Below the pieces are notes generated by a model. It worked only from the letters and a program-made list of their open reading frames with translations, made no database searches and was not told where the DNA came from. Of a stretch of DNA of 64,000 nucleotides, positions 8,163 to 37,553 are shown in pieces. The stretch is from an uncultured Candidatus Saccharibacteria bacterium (GTDB lineage Bacteria; Patescibacteriota; UBA1384; DTJR01), in assembly GCA_964487045.1 (NCBI GenBank), contig CAZAOT010000003.1, positions 3,730 through 67,729 of the forward strand, read 5' to 3'. Position numbers and translations under genes: made by a program. Numbering within the stretch: the stretch's first letter is position 1; each line of letters starts with the position of its first letter.

Positions 8163-8987
8163 ATGACACAATTTTTTTACAACCTAGTCGTTTTGTTCTC
8201 GTATCTGACCCCTCAGCATTATTTCTGGGTGTCGATCGTGCTGATCACTATCCTGATTCGCTTAATCTTCTTGAGGCCAACCTTCACGATGATGAAGACC
8301 CAGAAGAAACAGAAAAATGTTTCTAAGCGCCTTGCCGAGATAAAGGTGCAGTACAAAGACAATCCAAAAGCGCAGCAGGAAGCGACCATGGCTGTCTACA
8401 AAGAGGAAGGAATCAATCCACTTGGCTCTTGTCTTCCACTTATTATTCAGATGGTTTTGCTGTTTGGCTTTTATCAGATTTTCCGATTAAGCAACCTCGA
8501 TGTTGTAAAGACCGACATGCTCTACTCGTTTATGCCAAAGCCAGAGCATTTAAATACATGGTTCTTAGGCGTAGATCTCACGAAAACAGTCGCCGAAGTT
8601 ATCAAGGGTCCGGTTGGTTGGGTCGGATATATCTTCCCACTTCTAACTGGAGGTACTCAGTTGATCCAGTCCCTACAGGCCAGAAGTCTTCAGCCAGCTG
8701 CTGAAAAAGGTAGCAAAGAGGGCGATTTCTCACGTGCAATGACTGCCCAGATGACCTACTTCTTCCCGTTAATTACTACCTACATCTCCTACACTCTTCC
8801 AACTGCCCTTTCGATCTATTGGATTACTCAGACCGTCGCGATGATAATTCAGCAGTACTTCATCATGAAGAAATTCAAAGAAGAGGAGTTGGTTGCAGAG
8901 GAAGTCGCTGAAGTACTCGGAGCCAAGCAGATAAAGCAGTTCAAGAAGGGTGACGTAGTTGTTACGGTCAGAGACAAAAATAAATAG
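8163..8987 (+). CDS. yidC: YidC/Oxa1-family membrane insertase (short Gram-positive-like form)
   Basis: 274 aa polytopic protein following yidD. Conserved C-terminal TM core and basic tail. Confidence 0.85.
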   Translation: MTQFFYNLVVLFSYLTPQHYFWVSIVLITILIRLIFLRPTFTMMKTQKKQKNVSKRLAEIKVQYKDNPKAQQEATMAVYKEEGINPLGSCLPLIIQMVLLFGFYQIFRLSNLDVVKTDMLYSFMPKPEHLNTWFLGVDLTKTVAEVIKGPVGWVGYIFPLLTGGTQLIQSLQARSLQPAAEKGSKEGDFSRAMTAQMTYFFPLITTYISYTLPTALSIYWITQTVAMIIQQYFIMKKFKEEELVAEEVAEVLGAKQIKQFKKGDVVVTVRDKNK

Positions 8988-9124
8988 TTTACAAATTTCA
9001 AAGTCAGGCTAAATACTGTGGCTTGCCCCGTATTGTCCGCTTCTGGTGTGATTGGATGTAATCCAATAAGCCAGAAAGGATCGATACTGGGTTAGAGAAA
9101 AGAAGTAAGGTTAGCCTTAAAAAC

Positions 9125-9156
9125 AAAAAGACGACCTTCTTAAGGTCGTTTTTTTG
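9125..9156 (-). terminator. Hairpin terminator after the tRNA-Ser 3'-end duplicate
   Basis: Minus strand: AAAAAAACGACCTTAAGAAGGTCGTCTTTTTG. Confidence 0.5.
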
Positions 9157-9175
9157 ATGGCGGAGAGGGTGGGAT
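9157..9175 (-). repeat. Direct duplicate of the last 18 nt of tRNA-Ser (T-loop end + acceptor 3' strand + CCA)
   Basis: TGGCGGAGAGGGTGGGAT occurs at 9158-9175 and again at 9283-9300 (plus strand). Confidence 0.8.
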
Positions 9176-9282: not shown

Positions 9283-9372
9283 TGGCGGAGAGGGTGGGAT
9301 TCGAACCCACGAGACCCTTGCGAGCCCAACAGTTTTCGAGACTGTCCTGTTCAACCACTCCAGCACCTCTCC
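9283..9372 (-). tRNA. tRNA-Ser (anticodon CGA), long variable arm, CCA encoded
   Basis: Minus strand: GGAGAGG-TG-CTGG..AGTGGTTGAA..-ACAGT-CTCGAAA-ACTGT-long variable arm-GTGGG-TTCGAAT-CCCAC-CCTCTCC-G-CCA. Upstream promoter TTGATT-N17-TAATAT at 9385-9413 (minus). Confidence 0.8.
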
Positions 9373-22300: not shown

Positions 22301-24328
22301 TTATGTTTGGTTTGGATTATTTGTAGGCGTGGCTGCGGGAGGCGCTTGTACTTGTGGGCTTTGTCCTGGTACTTGCGCAGCAGGCGGCTGGATTGGGGCG
22401 GTTGAAGCCGGCGCTCCTTGGGTTTGTGCAGGCTCGATGATGGAAACTTGCGGTTGAGCTTGCGGAGTTGGCGCTGGGGCGGGTGCTGGAGCTGACGGAG
22501 CCTGATCACCCGTAATTGCCTCGCCGGCAACAGCATTTTGAGCATTCTCGGCTTCTTTTTGCGCCAAGAGTTCCTTCGGATCGGTCGTTATAATTTGGTC
22601 CTCAGCGAAGGATGCAATAATTTTTATAGCGACATGAGAAGCTCCAGCAAAGAATAACCCTTCTCCTACGTCGGATTCAAGTAAGATAAATTTTTCTCCT
22701 TCAGTCAGGTGGAAGACTTGGGCTAATTTTTCAACAGCGGCAGGAGACTGCTTGAGCAAGATCTGGATCGAAGAGTTGTTGATAACCGCCCGCCCCTGAT
22801 CAGAATTTAAGAAGTCTTCAACGTCTTGGCTGATGATAGTTAGACCAAGGAAGTATTTTCTAGCTCTTTTGGCAAGAGAATACAGATACTTAGCAGAATC
22901 CGGATATTGCATCAGGATCCAGGCCTCGTCGACGATCAGGATTCTTTTACGCATTTCATTTCTAATTCTCGCCCAGATGTAGTTTAGGATCATATACATG
23001 GCGAGTGGCCTCAGTGCTTCTTCCAGGTTTCTGATTGAAAATACGATAAACCCTCGCTCAAGCTCGAAGTTGGTTGGCTTGTTAAACAAACCGGCGAAAG
23101 TTCCTTCGGTATATTTCATCAAACGCCTGGCTAAGCTCTCCGCTCCCTTGGTGTTTTGCAAAACTCCTTGAAGGTCTGAAAGAAGCGGAGGGGTATTCTG
23201 ATGGGTCGAAGCATCGGCCGTTATGTCTCGAAGGGCATAGGTGTCGTAGACAGCTTTATCCAAAATCGCGTCTTCTTCCGGCGTTACTCCGCCAACCATC
23301 AAAGCAAGCAGGCCTTTGATGTCGGTAATCGCAGTTCGAAGCACAGTCTCTCCGTCTTCGTCCGCTCCCATTCGCGGCAAGTCAAAAGGGTTAACTCGTT
23401 TTTCTGAGTTTAGAGAAAAGTCAAAGAAACTTCCCCCGACAGCTTCGCATAATGCCTGGTATTCGTTTTCAGGGTCGATACAAATAACGTCTGTGCCAAA
23501 CATCAGCGAACGAAGCGCCTCGAGTTTAACCGTATATGACTTTCCCGAACCTGATTTAGCAAATACAACTTCATTGGCGTTCTCTAGATCGAATCTATCA
23601 AAGAGAATCAGCGAGTTGTTGTGTCTGTTGATTCCATAAAATACGCCTTTATTGGAAGTTAGCTCTGCTGAAACAAATGGAAAACTGGTCGAGAGGGAAT
23701 TAGTGTCGAGATTTTTAACTACCGAAAGTTCGTCCTCAGCAATTGGGAGCGTTGAGTGGAAACCTTGTTCTGATTGGAAAATTGCCTGTTTGGTATAGAC
23801 AAGCAAACCACCGAGCGAGCTAATTAAACGTTGCGTTTCGCTATTTAGGTCAACTTGGCTTTTTGCATAAATTGTAAAATAAAGCCCGACCTTAAAAATT
23901 CTCTGTTGCCCACTCATCAAATCGTCTCTGAGCGTATCGATATCACCAATGGCCTGGTCAAGTTGCGGGTTTCTGACCAACCCCTTTTCCTGCTCGATCT
24001 GGCGGCTAGATTCGAGCCTTCCAGCTTGCTTGCGCATCTTGTCTAAGAACAAATTAGAGTCAAGTGGAGCGATATGCATGCCGACATCCATTGTCATATC
24101 TGAGTTGACGACCGGCGAAAGCCAGTTGGAATACAAGAACCGAGGATAAGAGTAAACAAATAAGGTTTTAATAAAAAGATTATTGATCTGAAGGTAGTTC
24201 GGGGTTGTGATGTAACTCGCCGGTGCAATGAAATCAAGCATCGAGTTTGACGATTTCTCGATGTCTCGCTCGGTCTTCTTGGCTTGGCGAGGATCTAATT
24301 GGGGTTGAGCTTGTTTTTGGTCCGGCAT
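22301..24328 (-). CDS. VirB4/TrbE/CagE-family T4SS ATPase, C-terminal ATPase part with Pro/Gln-rich tail
   Basis: 675 aa. Walker A AKSGSGKSYTVK. Walker B ILIVDEAW. Typical VirB4 C-terminal domain. Confidence 0.85.
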   Translation of the reverse strand: MPDQKQAQPQLDPRQAKKTERDIEKSSNSMLDFIAPASYITTPNYLQINNLFIKTLFVYSYPRFLYSNWLSPVVNSDMTMDVGMHIAPLDSNLFLDKMRKQAGRLESSRQIEQEKGLVRNPQLDQAIGDIDTLRDDLMSGQQRIFKVGLYFTIYAKSQVDLNSETQRLISSLGGLLVYTKQAIFQSEQGFHSTLPIAEDELSVVKNLDTNSLSTSFPFVSAELTSNKGVFYGINRHNNSLILFDRFDLENANEVVFAKSGSGKSYTVKLEALRSLMFGTDVICIDPENEYQALCEAVGGSFFDFSLNSEKRVNPFDLPRMGADEDGETVLRTAITDIKGLLALMVGGVTPEEDAILDKAVYDTYALRDITADASTHQNTPPLLSDLQGVLQNTKGAESLARRLMKYTEGTFAGLFNKPTNFELERGFIVFSIRNLEEALRPLAMYMILNYIWARIRNEMRKRILIVDEAWILMQYPDSAKYLYSLAKRARKYFLGLTIISQDVEDFLNSDQGRAVINNSSIQILLKQSPAAVEKLAQVFHLTEGEKFILLESDVGEGLFFAGASHVAIKIIASFAEDQIITTDPKELLAQKEAENAQNAVAGEAITGDQAPSAPAPAPAPTPQAQPQVSIIEPAQTQGAPASTAPIQPPAAQVPGQSPQVQAPPAATPTNNPNQT

Positions 24329-25074
24329 TATTTATTTTGATTAATTGGCACTTGGGTTGTTTGTGGGCCCTGGGTCTCGGCTTGCGGCGCTTGGGCTTGG
24401 GTTAGGGCTGCGGATTCAATTCCAATCGCTTCAACTTCTCCTGAAATTTTCTCTCGCATTGCTTCCTCGGGATTGTAGGTGCGGTAGAAAAGTTCTATCA
24501 GCTGTTTGGTCGTGAGTGTTTGCGAGGTGATCCCCATGCTCATTAGACCAGAAACGACATTACCAGCTCTTTGTTCAAGTTCTCCCTTGATAGTGATAAA
24601 TTTTTTAAGTGGCACCTTAAGGTGAACGCGAGAAGAGCCAAATAGTGTTGAAAGAAACCCTTCTCTAGGCATTTCATTGGGAGGAAGCTGATAGGGAATA
24701 GTGATAAAGAATTTCTTGTCCATAATATTGGCAATTGAAATTAGCTTCTGGATAAAGTCTAAATATTCTTGAATTTGATAGCGAATCAGCTCATTTGGCT
24801 CTTGGGGAATTCTTGCTTCTAAATCTTTTACGTAACCAGTCAGGTCAAGCTGCTTTGAGTGCATAGTGATTTGGATAGGAAAAGATAGAGAGTTTAAAAA
24901 TGCTTGATACTGGGCGATAATGGCATTTTGCTCCTCTTCGCTCTTTAGGCCAAAGTTAAGAGAGTTAACCATCACGACTTGTGCAAAAAGTCCCTTCTTG
25001 GTCACCAGCACATCGTCATAAACCGCTGAAATTGGGATGTGCGCCTGAGTTGATAAGTTTGGATCGATTGCCAT
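24328..25074 (-). CDS. VirB4 N-terminal domain encoded as a separate ORF, coupled by a TAATG overlap
   Basis: 248 aa with the CagE_TrbE_VirB N-domain pattern (IPISAVYDDVLVTKKGLFAQVV...SEEEQNAIIAQYQAFLNSL). Its stop overlaps the ATG of the ATPase ORF by 1 nt. Confidence 0.6.
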   Translation of the reverse strand: MAIDPNLSTQAHIPISAVYDDVLVTKKGLFAQVVMVNSLNFGLKSEEEQNAIIAQYQAFLNSLSFPIQITMHSKQLDLTGYVKDLEARIPQEPNELIRYQIQEYLDFIQKLISIANIMDKKFFITIPYQLPPNEMPREGFLSTLFGSSRVHLKVPLKKFITIKGELEQRAGNVVSGLMSMGITSQTLTTKQLIELFYRTYNPEEAMREKISGEVEAIGIESAALTQAQAPQAETQGPQTTQVPINQNK

Positions 25075-25075
25075 G

Positions 25076-25642
25076 TTATTTAAAAATTCCTAAAAATCCT
25101 TTTTTTGCCTGCGCTGGGGCTGCTTGGCTAAGCTTTTGATTTTGGCTCGCAGTCTTAACATCTTTGACCGAAAGATTAACCGCTTTGGGTTTGGCCTGGG
25201 GGGCGACTGGGGTCTTAGATTGAATTGTGGCGGTTTGTTTCTCGAGTGACTTAGCAAGTGAATCGAGGTCAGCCTCGGTTTTTGCAACTTCTTTCTTCTG
25301 CTGGGCCTCTGCTGGATTTGCCCTGATGACTGCCTCTGGCGTGTATCCCCCGGTCCATTTTCTACTCTTCGGAGAAATCATAAACTTGAAAATATTAAGG
25401 AGAAAATACTCAAACGGACGGTCATTTACTTTTACCATTGCTAGGCAAAGACAGAGTAGCCCTACTGGCAATCCAACTATTGCAAAAATAACCATTGGTG
25501 GTGGCGAGGAAAATTGATTTGAGTAATTCCACCAGCCATAGAGAATAAAACCTCCGACCATCAAGTAAAGGAACTGCTTCATCGTAAAAGGACCGACAAT
25601 TTTGTCTTCTAGGTCTATATTTTGTGGAACCTTATATTGCAT
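25076..25642 (-). CDS. PrgI/VirB3-like small membrane protein upstream of VirB4
   Basis: 188 aa. Two TM helices near the N-terminus and a Lys/Ala/Gln-rich tail. Position and size typical of Gram-positive T4SS PrgI/VirB3. Confidence 0.5.
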   Translation of the reverse strand: MQYKVPQNIDLEDKIVGPFTMKQFLYLMVGGFILYGWWNYSNQFSSPPPMVIFAIVGLPVGLLCLCLAMVKVNDRPFEYFLLNIFKFMISPKSRKWTGGYTPEAVIRANPAEAQQKKEVAKTEADLDSLAKSLEKQTATIQSKTPVAPQAKPKAVNLSVKDVKTASQNQKLSQAAPAQAKKGFLGIFK

Positions 25643-25644
25643 AA

Positions 25645-25785
25645 TTAAACCAACTCCGCCATTGACCGAACTCGTCTCGCCCTCTCACTCTGCGATCCCT
25701 GTGATAACAGAGTGTAACTCGTTTCACGGGAAGCAGTAGTGACGGGGTCTTCTAAATCAATATTTTGCGGTACTTTGTACTGCAT
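25645..25785 (-). CDS. 47-codon upstream ORF whose first 13 residues (MQYKVPQNIDLED) duplicate the PrgI-like N-terminus with synonymous recoding
   Basis: ATG at 25785-25783 and stop at 25647-25645, 2 nt before the PrgI-like ATG. Eight of 13 duplicated codons differ synonymously. Promoter with extended -10 TGcTATAAT upstream (minus strand, about 25830-25870). Confidence 0.3.
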   Translation of the reverse strand: MQYKVPQNIDLEDPVTTASRETSYTLLSQGSQSERARRVRSMAELV

Positions 25786-25915
25786 CTTGAGCGCTTGCCC
25801 CTATCCTTAAAATTCCCTCTTTGCTGTAAGACTTGACCTAGAATTAATTATAGCACACCAAAATAATTGCCTACATTGCCAATTATTCTTAGTGCTTATA
25901 TTTACGGTAAAGTAA

Positions 25916-28900
25916 TTAGAATCCGAAGTGTACGTGGGTTTTGATTGAGCGATTTTGCATAAGTCCAGAAACTCTTTTGTTGGTCTTGCTTGGCAGGAAG
26001 TCTTCACCGTATAGGAGCCTAGCGTAGTTTACTATCTGTCTGTATCCAACCATTGGCTCAGAGCTCTCTTTGGCATATAGGGCGTCGGTGATTCCTAATT
26101 TTTTGGCTGCTTCAACTTCATCACTCGTAATGACTGCCCTTGGAGATATCAGTTGCTTGATCGCATAGGTTCCATTCTTGGGATTTTCTATGTCCATAAA
26201 ATTACTCCAGTGTTTCTTCAGGAAGCTAGTATCGGTCTTGGTGAGTTCGCGATTAGAGCTTGCTGCTAGGCTGTACAGAAGTAAGTCTTCAGCTACTTGA
26301 TCAACTGTACGGCGGGAGATTTTTTTGAACTGCTCCTCGCTAGGCTTCTTGGGAGCGAGATAGGCGGATGATGCGCTAACGGGGCTCGGCTTATCATCAG
26401 CGGCATAGACAATCGCAGGGGCAAAGACGTATGTTCCGCCCTCGGGCGCGGTACCCGCAGGTTGTTCAATTGGCGCATCAACTATCTTACCATCCAAGGT
26501 GTCATCCTTAGCAGCTTTTACAGCGTTCTTTGCGGCGGATTGGGCCTTAGGTTTCTTCTTGCCAAAGCCGAGAAAGCCCATAATGAAACCAACCGGATCG
26601 GTGAATATCTGAAGGGCCATTATTACTAGTCCTTTGATAGCCTGGATCGTGCTCTTGAAATCAATCAAAAGCGAGATTCCAAGTAAGATTGGCATCGAGA
26701 TTCCGAGCGATGCTATCCAGGTAGCGGCGTAGTTCATGGCAATGGAGGTTAATATTCCACCTGTCGGATCGATCTTAGCAAGAGTGTTTCCGACAAGTTT
26801 GTTTAGAATTACTCCTGTGGCAATATTGCTAAGTGTCGCGTTATAGTCAAAGTTTTTATAATAATCAACGATGTTGTTTGGTAGGTTCTGGACATTGTCT
26901 TGTAGGTTTACAATTGCATCTCGTGAAAAACCGAGTTGATCTTCAACAACCCCCCAGCCTAGATTTTCAAGCTTATTTTCGGGCGTTTCTACTTTATTGA
27001 GAGTATCTTTACCGGCATTTGTTGCATTGTTTGCGTTGGAGATATTATTGTTTTCGTTGTCTACAGCCACGCCTGGTTCACCCGACAGGTTAGAAGGAAC
27101 ATCACTTGTCGGATCATTGTTCATATTTGAAAAGGCGGCATCACCAGAATTTGAACCACTTGGGTCAATCCCAACATTAGAGGTTGTAGTCGGATATGTT
27201 GTGGTAGGCCTTGGGCTGCTGCTGATAGCCTCAGTTAAGGCGCTGTATAGTGCAGATGCTGCCTCGCCCGATATTTGCGTGTTTGTTATTCTAGAAAAAC
27301 CATTTGCCAAAAGAGTTTGTCCTGCGACATTTCCGAGTTGGCTAAAGTCATTGTTCATAAACTCCAAAGCTTGCTCTCTAGAGATTGGAATGTTGTTTGC
27401 TTCGGCAACTTCTTTGAGAGCATTTGCGCCGCTTTGCTTGCCTATGTCTGCCAGGAGCGCCTGCCGTTCGGCTTCCGTTCCGTGCATTAAAGTGTCAGTT
27501 ATCGATCTTGTGCCTGAATAATAAATGTGTTGCTGGGCGAGCTCGTAATTAACTAGATTATCTCTAAGCGCATCTCTTTCAGCGGCGGTGGAGCGTCCTG
27601 CAAGCACAGACTTAACTCCTTCAATCGTCACGGTTCCAGGTGGCAGCTGCGAGACAATCTTTTTGGCCACAATAGAGTTTGCTATGACCTTTTCCGCTCC
27701 CTTTACCTGTCCACTTGTTATTGCGTCAGCCTCTTTGTTATTGAGCCCTTTGGCGGTTAAAATATTTCTGCCTTCATCCTGCGCTGCTGCCTTCCCTTTG
27801 TCCAAAGCCTTATCAAGAGCCTTCTCGACTTTATCAGAAGTAGTTTGGCGATCTTTCTCTGCCTGATCTACACTCGAGCCTTCTGCACTAGAGGTAGCAA
27901 TTGCTCGAGCCTTTGCCTTAGCCCCAGCGTATGCGGACGCTGCAACTCCCTTGCTCGTATCGCTCCCGAGCATTCCATCGAGCATTTCCTTTGTTTCTTT
28001 GCCTAGTTTTGGGTTAGAAGAGAACGCGCTTGAAATTGCGGACGCACTCGAATAATCTTTTTTGCTAAAGTAATCAACAACTTTCTGTACTGGCAATTTG
28101 CTCTTGGAAGCAATTGCTCCAAGGGCAAGCTTTTTTCCAGCTGCAAAATTTCCATTTTTAAATAATGTTAAATCCTGCTTAGTAAGTGTCACGCCCCATT
28201 TTTTTCCAACTTCTTGATTGATCTTGGCAAGCCCGACGTCGGTTCCGTTCAAGCGATCTTGAGCTAATCCAACGCCAAGATAAGATGCTTGAGCAGCGGA
28301 TAGACCAATCTTTTGCAGCCCGCGACTAAAAATATATGCTTCGCTAGCCTGCTCTAGCTTTCCATTTTCAAAGCCCTCTTCGAGTTCTTTGGGGGTTGGG
28401 TTTGCGCCAAACACACTTTGAAATATTGCTTTTTCCTCTGGCTTCATGAGGTTAGTTGATGATGAAATTGTGCTGGCGTATACACTTGGATAAGCTTTAT
28501 CTAATGCGCTCACGTAGTCTGAAGATGAGCTGTAGACGTCGAATATTTCCTTGCATCCCTTAGCGTCTTCATCTGAAATATTTTGGTTTTGGTTGACCCA
28601 GTCAATGATAGTTTGAATTGCTTTTGTGCCTGACATTCTTTGGGCCACACCGCTTCTAAATTCTTTCTTGGTTAAAAAATCGTTTAAGGCTATCCGCTGA
28701 GTTTCATTTAAAGCTGGAGAACCCTTGAGTGCGATTAAAAATTTTCCAGCTACCGATGAGTCTTTTTGGGCTTGAGCTTCGTCTAACTTTGACCTAAGAG
28801 CCGCATAACCACCAGCCGTGAGTGCACGTAGCTGATCCTTTTCCGTTTCAGACATAGTGCGATTGCTTTCTATGTACGAGATTAACTCATCTGATGACAC

Positions 28901-34475: not shown

Positions 34476-34556
34476 TTGGGCAATGGAGGTGCCGAAGGCC
34501 GGCCCGTCGTTAGGCCGGCGCCAAATGTCAAGATTCGGCGCAATAATAATGAATAA

Positions 34557-34637
34557 AGAAATCCGAAATCCGAAAAAATTCCTAAATAATCAATTTGATT
34601 TTTTGTATTTGTTATTTATTCTTCATTCTGGTTTGAT
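34557..34637 (+). repeat. AT-rich intergenic repeat, copy 1 (about 90% identical to 37481-37553)
   Basis: GAAATCCGAAATCCGAAAAAATTCCTAAATAATCAATTTGATTTTTTGTATTTGTTATTTATTCTTCATTCT. Confidence 0.7.
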
Positions 34638-35187: not shown

Positions 35188-35535
35188 ATGACAAAGTTTG
35201 ATCTGGAAGAAAGAACCTCGAAGTTCTCTGAAAACATCATTTTGTTTATAAAAAAGATTCCTCCTGACAGAAAACTTGATCCTATTTTGAACCAACTGCT
35301 TGGGTCGGCTACATCGGTTGGAGCGAATTATTGCGAAGCAGATGACGCACATTCAAAAAAAGACTTTTGCCATAAAATCGCAATTTGTAAAAAAGAGTCT
35401 CGCGAGACAAAATATTGGCTTAGGTTAGTTGCAAGCGCTTTTCCGGAGTATAAAGAGGAGGCGAAGCTATTTTGGCAAGAAGCCCAGGAGCTAAACCTGA
35501 TCTTTGCTTCAATTTACAATAAGAAAATTTCTTAG
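35188..35535 (+). CDS. Four-helix-bundle protein of the 23S rRNA intervening-sequence protein family (PF05635-like)
   Basis: 115 aa. GSATSVGANYCEADDAHSKKDFCHKIAICKKESRETKYWLRL matches the family signature. Confidence 0.65.
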   Translation: MTKFDLEERTSKFSENIILFIKKIPPDRKLDPILNQLLGSATSVGANYCEADDAHSKKDFCHKIAICKKESRETKYWLRLVASAFPEYKEEAKLFWQEAQELNLIFASIYNKKIS

Positions 35536-37382: not shown

Positions 37383-37480
37383 AAAAATCCTTTGGTAATT
37401 TCTTACTTATTGGCTAGATCTTACCATACGAAGGGATCTTTTTCAATTTTATAGCACGAGCTTGAGAATTCTCAAATTAA

Positions 37481-37553
37481 GAAATCCGAATAACGAAAAA
37501 ATTCCTAAATTATCAATTTGAGTTTTTTGTATTTGTTATTTATTCTTCATTCT
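37481..37553 (+). repeat. AT-rich intergenic repeat, copy 2
   Basis: GAAATCCGAATAACGAAAAAATTCCTAAATTATCAATTTGAGTTTTTTGTATTTGTTATTTATTCTTCATTCT. Confidence 0.7.

Follow-up and report, generated by a model that had tools for sequence, protein, structure and literature searches.

The stretch of DNA analysed here (the window, 64,000 nucleotides in full) is chromosomal DNA of the candidate phyla radiation (CPR), with recF, dnaN and dnaA at 1.9-5.6 kb, rnpA-yidD-yidC at 7.6-9.0 kb, and a T4SS cluster at ~19 to 34 kb in which prgI is followed by a TraC-like gene and a gene for a VirB4-like ATPase. This layout, with a T4SS on the chromosome near dnaA, fits the published picture of Patescibacteria, in which such systems are widespread and generally relaxase-less and PrgI has been reported to be essential for epibiotic growth in one cultivated member (PMC12102498). 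Among nine ORFs scanned around the T4SS locus, none matched a relaxase family. A GTGCG motif may resemble the MOBQ nic regions of conjugative oriT sites. A 248-aa ORF (24328-25074) lies directly upstream of the VirB4-like ATPase gene (22301-24328) with a 1-base overlap, and an ORF of the same size at that position in two relatives (L044 and L045) carries a precomputed PF26593 TraC-like label.

The start of prgI is present twice, and the two copies are separated by an imperfect hairpin that we refer to as S. The features of the region are as follows.

25076-25642, minus strand: prgI, 188 aa, VirB3-like T4SS component (Pfam PF12666, E 2e-14)
25604-25642, minus strand: copy B, the true prgI start, first 13 codons
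25643-25673, minus strand: linker of 31 nt, bearing the Shine-Dalgarno (SD) sequence GGAG of the real gene
25674-25746, minus strand: S element, imperfect hairpin CCC...GGG with the 3' tail CGAGAC, directly after codon 13
25747-25785, minus strand: copy A, ATG plus 12 codons, the head of the 46-codon uORF
25785-25645, minus strand: uORF, 46 codons plus a TAA stop, beginning MQYKVPQNIDLED
25647-25645, minus strand: TAA stop of the uORF, 2 nt ahead of the prgI ATG at 25642
25847-25855, minus strand: extended -10 box TGcTATAAT, upstream of copy A, read in the sequence

The first-pass annotation had described an ORF that ends 2 nt before the PrgI-like ATG and repeats the first 13 residues of that protein with eight codons changed synonymously, and this description is accurate. 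Copies A and B (39 nt each) differ at 8 bases in 8 codons, with 8 synonymous and 0 nonsynonymous changes, and the N-terminus of PrgI consists of the same 13 residues as the start of the uORF. As ~83% of random single-base changes in these 13 codons would be nonsynonymous, the all-synonymous pattern in the window is far from chance, and it is the peptide rather than the DNA that has been conserved. Copy B is nearer in DNA sequence to relatives that lack S (6 differences from L040/L044) than copy A is (9-10), and alignment of the 5' UTR with these S-less relatives is suggestive, though only suggestive, of copy B being the native copy. Copy A of the window, with its 8 differences from copy B, is as distant from it as from the copies of other genomes.

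Strain-variant chimerism was one of four explanations that the annotation had offered, and here the second start would be a collapsed strain variant or a chimeric join made during assembly. The Logan assemblies of SRR11845623 (L001) and SRR11845635 (L002) are base-for-base the same as the window across the whole region, and this identity of the window with two further, independent assemblies refutes an assembly chimera. Homologous cassettes are also known from 17 further sequenced lineages, which stem from a wide range of samples and assemblers, and we give an artefact next to no probability.

The extended -10 sequence reported just upstream by the annotation is also there. A TGnTATAAT box precedes prgI in L040, L044, L039, L008-L010 and L007 as well, in loci with and without the insert, and we infer that the TGcTATAAT box of the window acts as a promoter; a consensus promoter scanner made no call at it owing to a poor -35. 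The SD sequence of copy A is poor in the window (GGGG, 13-16 nt upstream), and with so poor and distant an SD the window uORF may be translated weakly.

A check for the same uORF in related T4SS loci, as proposed in the annotation, found it in 17 sequenced lineages besides the window, so the refuting condition that the annotation had set, its absence from every related locus, does not hold. A scan of 36 species-representative prgI loci for a second copy of the N-terminal peptide showed one in L009 and L010, with the break after codon 13 followed by CCC as in the window. A junction-specific pattern recovered ten metagenome contigs; all nine that are fully readable share the cassette layout, and the tenth (L055) ends 17 nt into S. 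A profile of S added the prgI loci L014, L008 and L039, and among the 36 species-representative loci the cassette is present in L009, L010, L014 and L008. A leader-peptide search returned 15 called proteins, through which the same cassette was located in L068-L070, and the called leader peptides indicate at least eight more lineages. Counting the sequenced loci, copy A, S, a linker with SD and copy B lie upstream of prgI in 18 CPR lineages; as a heritable structure, the cassette recurs in many lineages of the CPR (Berkelbacteria-like).

The cassette runs in the order SD, start codon and 13 codons (copy A), S, a variable A/T-rich linker with a strong SD, and copy B. The ~100 nt between the copies are homologous in all cassette loci, and the repeat period, 143 nt in the window, varies from 140 to 179 nt. 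All but two of the sequenced S copies sit at the prgI junction, which falls after codon 13 in most and after codon 8 or 6 in two. In-frame deletions of 15 and 21 nt have shortened copy A to 8 codons in L039 and 6 codons in L008, and a rare Ala12 variant is shared by the two copies of L014 (as LAD) and by those of L069. The PrgI N-terminus itself, MQ[YF][KQ]VPQNID[LM]EDKI.GP, is near invariant across the family, even at 50% overall identity.

Several features of these loci would be expected of a dedicated cis-regulatory leader, in which the uORF and the S hairpin would together form an ancient translational control of the T4SS operon. Ribosomes from copy A would unwind S and terminate at the real start, leading to coupling or re-initiation, and the PrgI-like N-terminus would itself be under selection, acting perhaps as a nascent-chain or partner-binding sensor, or else as a decoy. 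The uORF indeed stays open through S and stops close to the real start (-34 to +30 nt from it in 12 loci), a strong SD and start codon precede copy A in 13 of 17 lineages (hand tally), both shortened copies arose by deletions that keep the frame, and in some lineages copy B begins with a weak or non-canonical start (ATT, ATA, TTG), all of which favour a leader. Against it, copy A has no usable SD in the window, L008, L039 and L070, the C-terminal two thirds of the leader, with the part that S encodes, are not conserved as a peptide, and no consistent pairing hides the real SD. We regard a dedicated leader as doubtful overall, if a serious contender.

The same geometry could also be read as recoding, with PrgI made from the copy A start after ribosomes hop between the two GAC codons, or after an intervening RNA of 143 nt is excised. 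As in the bypass of T4 gene 60, the take-off and landing codons match (both GAC) and a hairpin is present, here starting in the A site after codon 13; moreover, removing one repeat period restores the reading frame. Unlike gene 60, the S locus has CCC rather than a stop codon after the take-off codon, and copy B has an independent SD and start codon, so hopping would be unneeded. The variable repeat period, the S copies at yidC and metK that lie outside coding sequence (described below), and Rfam scans that returned no ribozyme or intron family match further reduce this reading to a highly improbable one. A diversity-generating retroelement was rejected as a source of the repeat: substitutions are of mixed types rather than confined to template adenines, the largest classes being C>T (14), G>A (13), A>G (13) and T>C (7), the repeat lies at the gene start, and no RT was seen.

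The cassette has left its mark on public annotations. In L039, the gene caller lengthened prgI by 58 residues through S in another frame (P0023, 2501-3292), and the leader is called as a separate protein in public sets (P0224-P0238). With caller extensions, mis-starts and leaders called as their own proteins, prgI start annotation in this clade is unreliable. A related arrangement was seen in a Howlettbacteria locus (L018, 1917-3010), in which two copies of the first ~25 prgI codons lie 1.1 kb apart with no S, and two ORFs between the duplicated starts resemble, by eye, a toxin-antitoxin pair of the nucleotidyltransferase/HEPN (MNT-HepT-like) type. Here another kind of insertion has entered the prgI start, which is again duplicated.

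The distribution of S among relatives is patchy. S is absent from the nearest PrgI relatives (L040-L045, 74-75% identical), in which 70-96 nt separate the upstream gene from prgI, and this absence from the closest relatives weighs against a dedicated leader. On a neighbour-joining PrgI tree, one large clade is made up of loci with S, among which S-less ones are interleaved, and the outgroups are without S. The similarity of S copies follows that of PrgI only loosely (Spearman 0.44), and the S tree is partly at odds with the PrgI tree; L009 and L047, for example, have S sequences that are 90% identical and PrgI proteins that are 58% identical.

In the window, S is a 73-nt imperfect hairpin with a fold of -31.8 kcal/mol (nhmmer E 8e-12; covariance model R1 21.5 bits, E 0.003). 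The hairpins of the S copies run from CCC to GGGG, with fold energies of -14 to -42 kcal/mol and much the same stability on both strands, and are followed by a tail, CRRG(AC). Conservation is seen at the hairpin base and in the tail, whereas the apex varies. A covariance model was built from five S copies and 15 copies were aligned to it, giving changes on both sides in 17 of 24 pairs, 89% of cells paired, and a covariation score of 0.44, compared with 0.14 for column shuffles (0 of 500 reach the observed score) and at most 0.10 when partners were slid by 1-3 columns; the alignment was fitted to the structure of the model, hence these values lean towards that structure. Compensatory change can also be read in the raw sequence, as in ACTGTGA/TCACAGT (L009) versus ACTGTTC/GAACAGT (L010), or GGAT/ATCC versus GAGT/ACTC (window). 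S with compensatory changes is kept across PrgI divergence down to ~42% identity, a persistence that also favours a leader. Together, these data show that S is kept by selection for its hairpin. They do not favour one strand: wobble counts (19 G-U versus 13 A-C cells) give no strand call, and this, like the equal stability of the hairpin on both strands, counts against a role in the mRNA leader.

Two S copies depart from the common form, one with a 34-nt extra hairpin in the apical loop (L053, 617-740) and one that has lost the apex, its inner stems being replaced by a short GC hairpin with the base and tail retained (L070, 10040-10090). A cmscan of 25300-26100 against Rfam 15 at E<=10 gave no match to S, the sole match being a chance one to snoR117 elsewhere in the stretch, and a scan of the whole window at gathering thresholds returned two tRNAs only. 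We found no description of S with its gene-end duplication in Rfam 15 or in a targeted literature search. Viral contigs scanned with the junction pattern gave no match, and five matches of an S-tail scan in viral contigs were discarded as chance hits in GC-rich phage DNA. Weak nhmmer matches in L007 and L012 proved to be coding or unrelated sequence. Three local candidates were likewise rejected: a TTGACA promoter in the linker after the tail, which has no -10 because that position is taken by the SD; the tail CGAGAC as a target-site duplication of GAAGAC, since CRRG follows the hairpin in non-prgI copies too; and pairing of UCCUU in the 5' arm with the real SD, for which several lineages have no complementarity. 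The copy number of S is 2 in the 64-kb window and 1 in each of three 20-kb loci; Logan contigs reached via proteins at the window edges were short and held no further S copy.

The second copy in the window, and another in a relative, lie at the 3' ends of unrelated genes.

8163-8987, plus strand: yidC, convergent with the second S copy
9020-9091, minus strand: second S copy, 32 nt past the stop of yidC, tail towards the gene
9091-9108, plus strand: displaced original yidC 3' end, GTT AGA GAA AAG AAG TAA (V-R-E-K-K-stop), abutting the CCC side of S
L055, 2067-2145, antisense: metK S copy, ~10 nt past the metK stop, tail towards the gene

The yidC copy matches the family with nhmmer E 2e-12 (model R1 36.3 bits, E 2e-7). 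Close YidC homologues mostly end in ...VREKK (a few in VKEKK or similar), and the window gene ends in ...VRDKNK; the segment at 9091-9108 is the original, displaced yidC end. S is absent at the yidC site in L065-L067 (YidC relatives 84% and 66% identical), where yidC is followed directly by a terminator and the convergent tRNA-Ser. In L055, a second metK 3' end lies beyond the CCC side of S. Both ends keep the GHFGR...LPWE motifs at a DNA identity of only ~63% (hand count), and they look like homologous ends from two different lineages. In L068, metK is beside prgI and has no S at its end.

All three genes thus share one layout, in which a displaced end fragment (CCC side) is followed by S, a short linker and the intact end (tail side). 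By hand count, the duplicated segment spans ~10-18 nt in the case of yidC, 39 to ~62 nt for prgI and 87 nt for metK, and the junctions GAAGAC|CCC, GGCCAT|CCC and CTCTAA|CCC have nothing in common outside S. S is a low-copy family found also just outside the 3' ends of yidC and metK, with constant polarity. Its antisense placement at these two 3' ends counts against a dedicated leader. The annotation had suggested a relic of a recombination junction between T4SS variants, and among its four options this comes nearest; the junction, however, does not join T4SS variants but is made by a conserved 73-nt hairpin, overlooked in the annotation, that also sits at the ends of yidC and metK.

An ordinary intergenic hairpin, of a kind normally found beside gene ends, could have come to these positions as a passive recombination scar, with no mobility or function. 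DNA imported from another lineage would have been joined illegitimately at the hairpin base after the import was anchored by homology inside the gene (homology-facilitated illegitimate recombination), and the gene end would have been duplicated in the process. That the junction is always exactly at the CCC of the hairpin base, that the length of the duplicated segment varies between yidC, metK and prgI, and that the metK ends look like homologues from two lineages are all in agreement with such an origin, as is a short imported patch that divides L050 from L054 (see below). A scar would leave the compensatory evolution of the hairpin unexplained, and likewise the retention of one prgI junction by at least 18 deep lineages, given that the direct repeats on either side should readily delete it. 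We consider a passive scar improbable.

Near the S copy at yidC, the 18 nt that end tRNA-Ser(CGA) (9283-9372, minus strand) are repeated ~110 nt downstream (9283-9300 and 9158-9175), with two small hairpins between the repeat copies and a good terminator following at 9125-9155. This repeat, which adjoins S, has the appearance of an att-type remnant, left by an element that integrated into the tRNA.

The way in which copies A and B have diverged bears on what the cassette is. Over 18 lineages the two copies differ by 67 synonymous changes and 1 nonsynonymous change (D13G in copy A of L068), a ratio from a biased sample, since the junction-pattern and peptide searches favour an intact copy A; in loci found without requiring an intact copy A (L008, L014, L039) the count is 8:0. 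The residue variants Y/F3, K/Q4, L/M11 and E/A12 always agree between both copies. Set against the 83% nonsynonymous change expected at random, the ratio argues for a leader, as does the agreement at positions 3, 4, 11 and 12. A neutral copy A mutating in place cannot explain the 67:1 ratio, and the remaining explanations are purifying selection on a translated leader or tracts imported or converted from functional genes.

Both kinds of exchange have left traces. Copies within a genome differ by 3.9 bases on average, compared with 7.7-8.0 between genomes. In L010, the copies form a perfect ~62-nt repeat that includes the SD (hand count; elsewhere counted as 24 identical bases upstream plus 38/39), those of L052 are identical at 38/39 positions, and those of L069 share their last 21 nt, including the rare Ala12 codon. 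The within-genome likeness and the L010 and L069 repeats indicate that gene conversion between the copies does occur. Two loci from the same aquifer, L050 and L054, are identical over 1.3 kb upstream, through copy A and the first 60 nt of S, then diverge over a ~90-nt patch that covers the S 3' arm, the linker and copy B (8 synonymous changes), and are identical again thereafter. This patch looks like a short imported tract, an indication that such imports happen.

Taken together, we lean, somewhat more than evenly, towards S being an insertion or integrative element, small and of low copy number, whose target gene stays intact by terminal duplication or replacement, with the uORF as a by-product. 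S would have inserted directly after codon 13 of prgI. Copy A reads straight into S, and the second complete start 31 nt past S (SD, ATG and 13 codons, copy B) makes PrgI. The element would be non-autonomous, moved in trans or by recombination, and would be tolerated in essential genes because the event carries or creates a replacement gene terminus. The copies would stay alike in protein through gene conversion and exchange with functional alleles of other lineages. The mRNA from the conserved promoter would then contain a short ORF that passes through the hairpin and ends at the real start; the uORF may add translational coupling, and a regulatory origin of the cassette is not required.

Recurrence, covariation of the hairpin, the yidC and metK targets, the patchy distribution, and exchange and conversion all support S as an insertion element. 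Its low copy number and the lack of a shared motif among the prgI, yidC and metK junctions weaken this reading, and the near-constant prgI junction is also compatible with a single ancient event that selection has maintained. No transposase, integrase or HUH enzyme turned up beside any of the S copies, and no circular or excised form of S was seen. The strong SD and start codon kept before copy A in most lineages count against it as well, and the 67:1 ratio is explained most simply as purifying selection on a translated leader, which argues against a purely selfish element; the two are compatible only if conversion and import are far faster than mutation. A combined reading would have a tiny mobile CPR hairpin of a new kind that settles in highly conserved terminal motifs of the essential genes prgI, metK and yidC, spares these genes by bringing or creating a replacement end, and was co-opted at prgI as a selected leader controlling translation of the T4SS operon. 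We think this rather unlikely.

S as an insertion element has partial parallels among known systems. In integrative elements, such as tRNA/tmRNA or protein-gene-targeting islands, prophages and CIME-like remnants, direct repeats of the target gene end flank the insert and the gene stays intact, as with S, and the repeat copies differ like homologues from different lineages, as at metK and prgI. Unlike these elements, the S insert is only ~100-140 nt with no integrase or ORF of its own, a covarying hairpin makes up most of it, and its targets share no att core. In shape, S presumably resembles the folded single-stranded DNA sites of integron attC and IS200/IS605 ends, which we take to have a conserved base and bulges, a variable apex and compensatory arms; unlike them, it has no R'/R'' boxes, cassette arrays or intI, and no TnpA or paired left and right ends were found. 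REP/REPIN-RAYT elements (PMC3116915) and MITEs are, like S, short imperfect non-coding hairpins beside gene ends with more than one copy per genome and with insertion polymorphism between relatives. In contrast to REPINs, S has a very low copy number and a CCC rather than a GTAG-type head, and neither the precomputed Pfam labels of L068-L070 nor a scan of 19 window ORFs showed a RAYT/Y1-transposase. The arms of S are inverted repeats, as in MITEs; the flanking duplication, in contrast to the short one of fixed length in MITEs, is variable (10-90 nt) and reaches the gene terminus.

For the leader, the closest comparisons are erm/cat attenuation, SecM and MifM: as here, the transcript of a regulated membrane-protein gene also bears a short ORF, which enters a stable hairpin and stops where that gene begins. 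Unlike those leaders, the uORF copies the N-terminus of the protein that it would regulate, and there is no conserved arrest motif or SD-sequestering fold. Whichever reading applies, a conserved, structured and unannotated element sits in the start region of prgI across dozens of lineages. If S is mobile, very small elements can live in essential genes of tiny genomes by a swap of gene ends, not by splicing. As a regulator, S would be the first described case of cis-acting control in this T4SS, with an unusual leader that copies the protein's own N-terminus.

Other features were observed in these regions. Small four-helix-bundle genes lie beside or inside the T4SS cluster in L039 (2073-2430), L069 (7708-8079), L070 (10657-11049 and 14178-14579) and the window (35188-35535); those of L069 and L070 carry a precomputed PF05635 label ('23S rRNA intervening sequence protein'), and the L039 and window copies were recognised by eye. 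They may be mobile mini-genes, and the L039 gene has GC-rich inverted repeats on both sides. The window also contains GC-rich islands at 5.7-7.5, 9.4-10.3, 38-39 (67% GC), 41-42, 53-54 and 59-60 kb, in a genome background of ~43-45% GC. Ten long ORFs of these islands had no Pfam match and hence offer no recombinase candidate. L065 and L066 lack the dnaA-rnpA island, which adds ~1.4 kb in the window; their spacer at this site is 430-640 nt. Finally, a 79-nt A/T-rich direct repeat (92% identical) at 34552-34629 and 37475-37553 encloses a ~2.9-kb segment, and each copy of the repeat abuts a GC-rich island.
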